Shown here piece after piece: positions 1,032 to 5,697 of a stretch of 5,697 bases of DNA. Each line of letters opens with the position of its first letter. Position 1 is the stretch's first letter. The position numbers were made by a program, and so were the translations under genes. Origin of the DNA: a virus (lineage: Duplodnaviria; Heunggongvirae; Uroviricota; Caudoviricetes); IMG/VR virus record IMGVR_UViG_2695420871_000005. One strand, written 5' to 3'. The notes under the pieces were generated by a model. The model made no database searches and had not been told where the DNA came from. It saw only the letters and a program-made list of their open reading frames with translations.

Positions 1032-1060
1032 TTGACAATAATTTTCATTTCCATTAAAAA
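1032..1060 (+). promoter_or_regulatory. Candidate sigma70 promoter pointing away from the lysis genes
   Basis: TTGACA at 1032-1037, 17-bp spacer, TAAAAA at 1055-1060. The -10 is weak because the final T is missing. Confidence 0.3.
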
Positions 1061-1066
1061 AGATCG

Positions 1067-1163
1067 CGTAGCATTCTTAATTCATGAGGAACTTTACCCG
1101 CCAGCAATCTGAGTAGCGAAAGCTGTTCATCCCCAATGTTTTTGCTGGCGGGTCCTTTTTTCT
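1067..1163 (+). ncRNA. Candidate small RNA of about 100 nt (hypothetical)
   Basis: Bounded by the candidate promoter at 1032-1060 and a plus-strand terminator at 1096-1163. The only ORF inside is 10 codons with no RBS. Not supported by homology. Confidence 0.25.
1096..1163 (+). terminator. Plus-strand terminator-like hairpin
   Basis: Perfect 12-bp stem ACCCGCCAGCAA (1096-1107) with TTGCTGGCGGGT (1142-1153), a 34-nt loop, then CCTTTTTTCT. A second GC hairpin with a T-rich tail follows at about 1172-1205. The T-runs are on the plus strand only. Confidence 0.4.
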
Positions 1164-1600
1164 ACGGTCCTCCTCCCCGGAGGGGGGCATTTCATTATTT
1201 TTCTAATCGTTACTGGTGAGAAGGCGGAAGAAAAAGCCAGTTCTTCGCCCCTAAATAACAGCATGATTCCAGTCCATGCAAAATCTGATTTCCAGCTCAC
1301 ACATACCGAGCACTGTACAAAAAACCGCCAGCCAAGGCAGTTAAGAGTGTGTTCCCGGGGTTTGCTTAGAATATTTTGTAAGTTGTCCGAAGAGATATTT
1401 ACAACACCAGAATGATGAATCATCAGTCCCCTGCCAGAGGTTCACTACGTAACCTGACCGACAATGCACCATTCTGGTGCTGAAAAAAGAGCACTGGAAC
1501 TGCAACAAAACAACATCACAGAACAGGAGATGGTAAGGAGTCAGACATTCCCACACAATATTGTGTCAGTGCAAATAACAACCTTCGTCTCAAATCTCGC

Positions 1601-2664: not shown

Positions 2665-2870
2665 AGACATGTCCTTTCGAATATTTTGATTTACCCCTTT
2701 TGAGAGGGTGACCGGGCGCTCAAAACCGTCGAAAGTCGGCGGGCGTATTTCCATTGCTGGTATTGTATTAGCCGCACACCCGGTCATAAACCAAGAATTC
2801 TGGACACAAAAAAACCACATGGCTATCGGGTGTGGATACCGCTTTCGAGGTGTTTTGAGCACCGCGGGGA

Positions 2871-2899
2871 AATGTAAACTGCAAACCTGAAACTGTCAA
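2871..2899 (-). promoter_or_regulatory. Candidate sigma70 promoter for the ORF6N moron
   Basis: Minus strand: perfect TTGACA (2899-2894), 17-bp spacer, TACATT (2876-2871). It would give a roughly 200-nt 5' UTR. Confidence 0.4.
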
Positions 2900-3024
2900 C
2901 ACCGTCAGGTTCCAATCATCGGGTGGTGAGACGCACAGGGTTGGAACTACCGGGAAACCGACCGGCGAGCTTTTCAGCTCCCCCATGCGCCCCACCATAA
3001 TTCAGATGTGCGCGTGCATACGAC

Positions 3025-3049
3025 AATAAAAAACACGCTCGCGGCGTGT
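3025..3049 (-). terminator. tR'-like intrinsic terminator downstream of the late promoter
   Basis: Minus strand: stem ACACGC/GCGTGT (3049-3033) with loop CGCGA, followed by TTTTTATT (3032-3025). Confidence 0.6.
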
Positions 3050-3110
3050 GTCTGTCGCGGTCTCTATCCGGGGTTCCAATCCCGACGCCAGATTTTGCTG
3101 GCGCGTGAGG

Positions 3111-3140
3111 AATATAGCCCCGGACAATGTGTCTGGTCAA
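3111..3140 (-). promoter_or_regulatory. PR'-like late promoter (target of Q antitermination)
   Basis: Minus strand: TTGACC (3140-3135), 18-bp spacer, TATATT (3116-3111), starting 4 nt after the Q stop codon. A hairpin CGCCAG/CTGGCG lies in the early transcribed region (about 3083-3104). Confidence 0.6.
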
Positions 3141-5641: not shown

Positions 5642-5697
5642 TGGATTTGCCCCTATATTTCCAGACACCTGTTATCACTTAACCCATTACTGGCTTG
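5642..5697 (-). mobile_element. IS2-family terminus (IRR-type end), diverged variant, inverted relative to the left-edge copy; the body lies right of the window
   Basis: 5642-5690 is the reverse complement of 13-61 with one mismatch (C at 5668 vs T). The inner 7 nt diverge, and the differences are silent or conservative in the transposase frame (A-S-N-G vs A-C-N-G), suggesting a distinct functional IS2 isoform rather than the same copy. Confidence 0.7.

Follow-up and report, generated by a model that had tools for sequence, protein, structure and literature searches.

A candidate plus-strand small RNA gene between the tRNA cluster and the holin gene of a lambdoid prophage

Results

A candidate transcription unit opposed to the late operon

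In the late region of a lambdoid prophage, we identified an interval of the plus strand (positions 1032 to 1163) that joins a promoter-like site to a structured, terminator-like stem-loop and is conserved as a unit among its relatives. Judging from these sequence features, we consider the case about evenly balanced that the interval is an independent plus-strand transcription unit, with a predicted non-coding RNA of about 97 nt as its product. Under the proposed mechanism, a sigma-70-type promoter (TTGACA-17-TAAAAA) would fire against the direction of the late operon, and the RNA would consist of an A/U-rich, mostly unpaired 5′ part followed by a long stem around a GNRA-capped hairpin and a 12-nt C/U-rich stretch, ending at an intrinsic terminator with a U6 tail.

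The window, by which we mean the whole 5,697-nt stretch of DNA analysed here, is the late-regulatory part of a lambdoid prophage of E. coli/Shigella. On the minus strand, it carries a holin gene of the phage-21-type class II (the S gene, 920-705, with a match to PF04971), the lysozyme gene R (705-208) and a cluster of four tRNA genes (Met, Arg, Thr and Gly, 1911-1601), along with recognisable genes for a DnaB-type helicase, RusA, the antiterminator Q and an ORF6N (antirepressor-like) protein. The earlier note on this DNA had placed all genes on the minus strand, which is correct for every recognisable gene and for the four tRNAs. The candidate unit occupies part of the non-coding DNA, 680 nt in length, that separates tRNA-Gly from the start of the holin gene. 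The tRNA operon has a terminator of its own at 1342-1317 (minus strand), which ends a trailer of about 280 nt (1600-1317).

The borders of the window have a history of their own. Positions 1-62 and 5642-5690 represent the same IS2 terminus in inverted orientation, with 100% and 98% identity to the end of an IS2 copy on plasmid pAMSC2; given that both window ends are inverted IS2 termini, the prophage segment is bracketed by two inward-facing IS2 ends. The lysis cassette is rearranged at 62-211, where, reading by eye, we find an apparent start of Rz after the lysozyme gene (about 211-163, minus strand) that continues into a 98% copy of the 3′ half of the holin gene (62-160 versus 723-821), followed directly by IS2.

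The promoter-like site

The TTGACA-17-TAAAAA promoter-like site that the earlier note had pointed out is present at 1032-1060. Its −35 hexamer, TTGACA (1032-1037), is the sole TTGACA on the plus strand of the window and is invariant in all 8 aligned variants, and the −10-like hexamer TAAAAA (1055-1060), which follows after 17 nt, matches TATAAT in 4 of 6 positions; in the −10 region, CATTAAAA is invariant in 7 of the 8 variants. The complete pattern has a single match in the window, against 0.02 matches expected from shuffled sequences. Measured against the sigma-70 consensus, the −35 is perfect, the spacer is 17 nt long, and the A at position 2 of the −10 is present, whereas the T at position 6 is absent. 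Because this usually conserved last T is missing, the site does not appear in a consensus promoter scan. The verified promoter of PasA, a prophage sRNA discussed below, has a comparably A-rich −10. The promoter-like site lies 59 nt upstream of a perfect 12-bp stem with a T6 tract, and transcription is predicted to start near 1066-1068.

The stem-loop, the U-tract and the predicted fold

The first 30 nt or so of the predicted RNA (1066-1095, plus strand) are unpaired in the centroid fold. This 5′ part is the most variable segment of the RNA body (76% identity), yet columns 12-29 of alignment A2 are almost invariant, and it includes a conserved AUUCUUA.UUCAUGAGGA stretch. It is followed by the terminator scaffold (1096-1153, 95% mean pairwise identity), which agrees with the description in the earlier note of a perfect 12-bp stem closing a 34-nt loop with a T-run at 1096-1163. 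The outer stem is a perfect inverted repeat, ACCCGCCAGCAA / TTGCTGGCGGGT (1096-1107/1142-1153), with 34 nt between the arms. This "loop" is not open: in the predicted fold, it contains an inner 8-bp hairpin capped by a GAAA tetraloop (1110-1129) and a C/U-rich unpaired stretch of 12 nt, UCCCCAAUGUUU (1130-1141). Two nucleotides (CC) after the stem, a U6 tract (1156-1161) forms the predicted 3′ end of the RNA; the tract is invariant in all 8 aligned variants, is reduced to five T in single variants from IMG/VR and metagenomes (L012, L218), and is likely to serve as an Hfq-binding tail. The minimum free energy of 1067-1163 is −31.6 kcal/mol (z = −4.1), and none of 200 shuffled sequences was as stable.

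With its GC-rich stem and a U-run that follows on one strand only, the element is similar to an ordinary Rho-independent terminator. It differs from such terminators in that the stem encloses 34 nt with a hairpin of their own, that 2 nt precede the U-run, and that the element has its own conserved promoter-like site and no gene upstream on that strand. The structured, unusually large interior and the 2-nt gap before the U-tract are the reasons why the terminator is missed by a standard scan.

The strandedness of these signals bears on a different reading, under which the structure has its function in the minus-strand transcript, where it would process or stabilise the late mRNA from within its leader. 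The 12-bp stem is palindrome-like and would also fold in the late transcript, and the covariance model described below gives a weak reverse-strand match to the outer stem alone (14.9 bits, E 2.5). However, both the T6 after the stem and the upstream TTGACA-17-TAAAAA exist on the plus strand only, and the G.U pairs of the inner hairpin would turn into A.C mismatches in a minus-strand RNA. Furthermore, the long stem is followed on the minus strand by UAAAGUUCC, so that it can terminate plus-strand transcription only. Taking into account both lines of evidence, we regard a minus-strand role as very unlikely.

The predicted sRNA need not extend beyond the U6 tract. The earlier note had proposed a transcript of about 100-135 nt and had included in it a second GC hairpin with a T-rich tail. 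This hairpin is present, as a terminator scan places it on the plus strand at 1167-1205 (hairpin 1167-1188, 9 pairs), but it is not part of the conserved unit: the second hairpin and its tail are the least conserved segment (68% identity), with the pairing largely lost in the VE-T10 type and the T-rich tail deleted in the plasmid type of the sequence variants introduced below. Probably, the second hairpin is incidental and lies outside the functional unit, where it would act at most as a back-up terminator. Because of this poor conservation, we delimit the core RNA to about 97 nt, and the form of about 135 nt would be, at most, an optional read-through product.

Distribution and conservation of the element

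DNA with 85-90% identity to the interval 952-1301 is found in 1427 of the 5426 complete E. coli genomes, with the element intact in 1427 of them. The sequences fall into about 10 variants in E. coli and Shigella that are 85-100% identical among themselves. The window type (9 genomes, for example CFSAN029787) shares the tRNA-holin context, and the VE-T10 and N64 types belong to intact prophage late regions, with the element of the N64 type positioned between the holin gene and an ADP-ribosyltransferase/AB5 toxin pair. In the B2-chromosome type (ATCC 25922, NZ_CP037449.1 1106710-1107057, plus strand; Nissle 1917, NZ_CP171242.1 905154-905334, minus strand; EC5654), the prophage has decayed to a remnant in which the element is accompanied by an Rz fragment and an ISL3 copy, and papI is about 2 kb away. 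The plasmid type, on ColV-like plasmids (for example, NZ_CP031107.1 135027-135370), adjoins the serum-resistance gene iss and an Rz/Rz1 remnant. In the B2-chromosome and plasmid types, the holin and lysozyme genes are gone while the promoter and terminator of the element are kept (about 1400 genomes).

IMG/VR and metagenomes contributed no more than minor variants to this set. Of 62 holin-anchored GTDB loci (one genome per species), only two carry the element, those of Shigella flexneri SFBU1023 and E. coli ECMA0423. A scan of IMG/VR with the loop core retrieved 52 loci of about 5 types, and a scan of metagenomes anchored on the 5′ part retrieved 87 loci, comprising the same types and three minor variants. 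When IMG/VR was scanned with the stem arms and a free interior, 50 new loci emerged, all of them unrelated by the covariance model. The scans of IMG/VR and metagenomes that were aimed at variants with different stems or loops found none.

We compared the conservation of consecutive segments as the mean pairwise identity across six sequence types. Starting next to the holin gene, the identity is 88% in the late-direction terminator described below, 81% in the spacer, 91% in the promoter, 76% in the 5′ part of the RNA, 95% in the stem-loop with the U-tract, 68% in the second hairpin and tail, and 82% in the downstream segment. The promoter and the stem-loop with its U-tract form one conserved unit that exceeds its flanks (about 81%).

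The helices themselves are nearly invariant. Across the variants from E. coli, IMG/VR and metagenomes, none of the 26 predicted pairs is altered on both sides, that is, there are no compensatory changes, and only a few single-side G.U/A.U changes occur among the helix pairs. The outer stem has one A.C break in the plasmid type, L061 has one G.U, and the N64 type has lost the two outer pairs of the inner hairpin. Given that the stems are invariant across the variants, the predicted structure is backed by folding energy and conservation only.

These observations can also be read as the trace of a region that is not a gene at all, in which a promoter-like site and a hairpin with a T-run arose by chance in a spacer and have been conserved by ancestry or hitch-hiking (for example, with iss/bor). 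The variants are restricted to Escherichia/Shigella, and because they are close relatives, part of the conservation may indeed reflect recent common ancestry or hitch-hiking; such an origin would also be compatible with the lack of compensatory changes, the imperfect −10 and the A.C mismatch in the stem of the widespread plasmid type. On the other hand, the contrast between the promoter (91%) and the stem-loop (95%) and the sequences between and around them (68-81%) is unexpected under uniform neutral drift, the promoter pattern is rarely expected by chance, and the PasA/PasC loci have a verified sRNA gene with this layout in this position. We therefore consider a chance origin possible but doubtful. 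The plus-strand regulatory sRNA that was first proposed in the earlier note finds partial support: the pattern of conservation fits such a gene, no ORF is shared among the variants, and both position and orientation are like those of PasA/PasC.

Coding potential

The earlier note had found no credible ORF in the interval, and the comparison of variants agrees: frames are shifted by indels, so that no ORF on either strand has the same frame, start or length in all six sequence types. In the window, the ORFs in the region of the element encode 26-57 aa and are not hydrophobic. The RefSeq annotation of VE-T10-type genomes includes a 63-aa hypothetical protein on the minus strand of the homologous stretch, and this protein is not conserved. 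Therefore, although this annotation exists and hok/sok loci occur in related prophages, we regard it as highly improbable that the interval encodes a small protein, such as the 63-aa product in VE-T10, or a type I toxin-antitoxin pair. A toxin-antitoxin system of the hok/sok type was specifically considered and rejected, given that there is no conserved ORF and no match to Sok or any other toxin-antitoxin RNA of Rfam (E ≤ 1).

Terminators upstream of the holin gene and possible action in cis

About 40 nt upstream of the holin start, the minus strand contains an intrinsic terminator in the late direction (951-987) with a 10-bp stem and a T-run, which sits between the predicted sRNA promoter and S and is conserved in all variants. 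We scanned loci with class II holins from many Enterobacteriaceae (L064-L125) and found that 25 of the 52 non-identical loci have a late-direction terminator no more than 130 nt away from the holin start, compared to 2% of the shuffled controls. Terminators in the antisense direction were detected upstream of the holin in 3 of the 52 loci by a crude scan that was limited to loops of up to 20 nt and misses the element of the window. The late-direction terminator looks like a general device that keeps transcripts that are not antiterminated out of the lysis genes, and the frequency of such terminators upstream of class II holins points to a general silencing of the lysis genes in lysogens.

A candidate promoter directed against the late operon next to this terminator might act in cis. 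Under such a scenario, head-on transcription against late transcripts coming from the tRNA/moron region would shield S and R from leaky expression in the lysogen, and the RNA, perfectly complementary to the leader of the read-through transcript, would act together with the terminator (987-961). The location of the unit, between the tRNA operon with its own terminator and the holin gene and directly upstream of the conserved late-direction terminator, is consistent with this possibility, as are the presence of PasA/PasC in the same slot and orientation and the antisense orientation of AsxR to the stx2 transcript. Nevertheless, the RNA does not overlap the ribosome-binding site of S and would be transcribed away from S, and the promoter and terminator are retained in the genomes of the B2-chromosome and plasmid types, where there is no holin or lysozyme gene left to protect. 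In addition, antisense-direction terminators are rare outside Escherichia compared to those in the late direction, with the caveat that the crude scan is blind to loops of more than 20 nt; because the former are rare and the latter common, insulation does not generally need an antisense unit. We accordingly judge action in cis to be unlikely, and the suggestion of the earlier note that the RNA could be an antisense regulator of late read-through into S loses ground on the same evidence.

Other RNA signals in the window

Apart from the candidate sRNA, the window contains several RNA signals on the minus strand. In the gap between the Q and ORF6N genes (2702-3117), just downstream of the late antiterminator gene, four Rfam families score above their gathering thresholds, namely, c4-a1b1 (3065-3117), isrK (3028-3104), C4 antisense RNA (2919-3002) and sRNA-Xcc1 (2702-2785). 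This cluster presumably resembles an antirepressor control module, P1 immI-like or Gifsy-1 IsrK/AnrP-like.

The trailer of the tRNA operon is unusual in two respects. First, the stretch TGTGATGTTGTTTTGTTG (1503-1520, minus strand) matches the GU-rich stretch of gcvB from E2348/69, which we take to be the R1 seed region, in 17 of 18 positions, a score that was reached in 1 of 1000 shuffles. The homologous trailers of phages SerU-LTIIb and 683R6 lack the motif, and there is no match to the GcvB family of Rfam; the motif could be a seed mimic or a product of chance. Second, a 31-nt imperfect inverted repeat with 77% complementarity is located inside the trailer (1398-1486). Some stretches of the trailer, among them CCAGTGCT..TTTTTTT, GGAATGGTGCATTATCGGT and CATCATTCTGGTGTTGTAAA, are preserved in SerU-LTIIb and 683R6, which suggests a second structured RNA derived from the 3′ end of the tRNA operon.

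Discussion

Taken together, the results translate into a model in which the interval between the tRNA cluster and the holin gene harbors an sRNA gene that is transcribed against the late operon. By analogy with PasA/PasC and the AsxR/AgvB anti-sRNAs, which are antisense and located in the same region of lambdoid prophages, the RNA would most likely be produced during lysogeny. The terminator and the U-tail would provide the contact to Hfq, and the unpaired 5′ part or the internal loop would base-pair in trans with RNAs of the host or of a prophage. We infer its transcription, start site, Hfq dependence and action in trans from these parallels and from the sequence. Potential pairing with the translation-initiation regions of S, R, ant, Q, rusA and dnaB was no better than that of shuffled RNA.

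About a quarter of the complete E. coli genomes retain the element with its promoter and terminator intact, in some cases next to iss on ColV-type virulence plasmids or near the pap island of B2 strains, which invites a broader interpretation. Tentatively, and with more doubt than confidence, we suggest that the element represents a prophage sRNA that was domesticated and, having survived the loss of its phage, regulates host or virulence genes in trans, as an unnoticed, ExPEC-associated counterpart of the Pas sRNAs of EPEC and EHEC.

Several known sRNAs were considered and rejected as identities of the element. PapR and C271 of UPEC were examined because the B2-chromosome copy is located about 2 kb from papI. 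The start GGGCTGAAGTCCGGAAGTT and the end TCTCCCAGCGCGGGCTTTTTTT of PapR, as given by its cloning primers (Khandige et al. 2015, S3 Table), do not occur in the element, and the primer and probe sequences of C271 do not match it. The STnc100/PasD model (RF02076) does not match anywhere in the window, and it scores 41.4 bits on its positive control, the PasD2 region of the E2348/69 locus (L005). In the literature on sRNAs of ExPEC, Nissle and OMVs, we found no existing description of the element. A search of 920-1600 against Rfam 15, as suggested in the earlier note, gave no match at E ≤ 1; Rfam does not contain PasA either, so that this negative result has little weight.

Prophage sRNAs encoded downstream of PR′ are a known class, and the prophage anti-sRNAs among them combine a conserved 3′ scaffold with a 5′ end that varies more (Tree et al. 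2014, PMC4104026). AsxR and AgvB (RF02703 and RF02702; PMC4104026) are such sRNAs: they come from the moron region downstream of PR′ and bind Hfq, and AsxR is antisense to the late stx2 transcript. The candidate likewise combines a conserved 3′ part with a variable 5′ part, albeit on a different scale, as AsxR/AgvB are 51-60 nt long (conserved 3′ part of about 42 nt, variable 5′ part of 14-18 nt) compared to about 97 nt. Moreover, AsxR/AgvB form convergent pairs just after the moron coding sequence, whereas the candidate lies beside the holin gene, and unlike the case of AsxR/AgvB, no known core sRNA was found to be complementary to the candidate. Identity with AsxR/AgvB was rejected on the basis of this length difference and the lack of a match to RF02703 or RF02702 in 920-1600 at E ≤ 1.

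The closest parallel is provided by PasA and PasC (EPEC E2348/69; EcOnc51/52 in EHEC), which are Northern-verified, Hfq-dependent sRNAs (Pearl Mizrahi et al. 2021, PMC8550237). PasA maps to positions 743499-743415 on the minus strand of NC_011601.1 (PMC8550237, Table S6), and pasA, pasC and pasD1 typically adjoin the holin/lysozyme operon (Zhu, Shabalina & Storz 2026, bioRxiv 10.64898/2026.05.13.724894). In the E2348/69 locus, PasA (L005:2916-3000, minus strand) is located between a sialate esterase (moron) gene and a class II holin gene (3214, plus strand) and is antisense to both. Followed in the direction of the sRNA, this locus consists of an A-run with a hairpin (the late-direction terminator before the holin), a spacer, TTGACA, an A-rich −10 and the RNA body, which ends in a terminator with a large loop, GCCAGCAC..CGAAAG..GTGCTGGC, and a U-run. 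Directly downstream of PasA, at L005:2765-2870 (minus strand), we noticed a second unit of the PasA/PasC kind, which has a TTGACA of its own and a terminator that combines GCCAGCG...CGCTGGC with a U-run. The position of this terminator approximately agrees with 743,264, the 3′ end reported for the "minor" form of PasA of 236 nt (Table S6, PMC8550237).

By sequence similarity, the element of the window does not belong to the PasA/PasC family, for which the published measure is a blastn match over >75% of the query. An nhmmer search with the window element retrieved L123/L124 only, and the PasA/PasC loci (L005, L006 and L088) were absent at E ≤ 10. Smith-Waterman and global alignments to PasA, PasC and the second PasA-like unit stayed within the range of shuffled sequences (p 0.09-0.77). 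A covariance model built from nine variants of the element scored 130.7 bits in the window and found no match in the PasA/PasC loci at E ≤ 10. The link between the candidate and the verified Pas sRNAs is one of analogy only.

The analogy in the organization of the loci is nonetheless extensive. The window element (1032-1163, plus strand) lies in the gap between moron cargo and holin, antisense to the late genes, which is the location that defines PasA/PasC. As in the case of PasA/PasC, this slot separates the moron region from the class II holin/lysozyme cassette of a lambdoid prophage; the promoter combines a perfect TTGACA −35 with an A-rich −10; a late-direction terminator stands between the sRNA unit and the holin; and the parts follow each other in the same order as in PasA. 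The sizes are similar (79-85 nt for PasA/PasC compared to about 97 nt). Another shared trait is the ending in a stem and U-tract (12 bp and U6 in the window), with an unusually large terminator loop, a stem that contains GCCAGC(A)...(T)GCTGGC and a U-rich tail: the stem motifs are GCCAGCA/TGCTGGC in PasA and GCCAGCG/CGCTGGC in PasC, and the CGAAAG motif in the loop of PasA recurs in the window terminator, GCCAGCAA..CGAAAG..TTGCTGGC. The candidate differs from PasA/PasC in its stem, which has a greater length (12 bp) and surrounds a second hairpin. The neighboring cargo is a tRNA cluster in the window and the sialate esterase gene at PasA, and the distributions differ as well, with the window element found in ExPEC chromosomes and ColV-type plasmids and PasA/PasC in EPEC/EHEC.

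Probably, the candidate represents a new sequence family in a class of prophage sRNAs that is already known, that of late-region sRNAs in antisense orientation, and it is one that surveys based on Rfam and BLAST miss. Unannotated as it is, the element is widespread in remnant form, both on ColV virulence plasmids and among probiotic and extraintestinal pathogenic strains. The sRNAs from the late and moron regions of prophages that rewire host regulation in pathogenic E. coli, namely AsxR, AgvB, PasA-D and Esr41, were found in EHEC/EPEC; if transcribed, the candidate adds to them a distinct sRNA family at the same prophage position.
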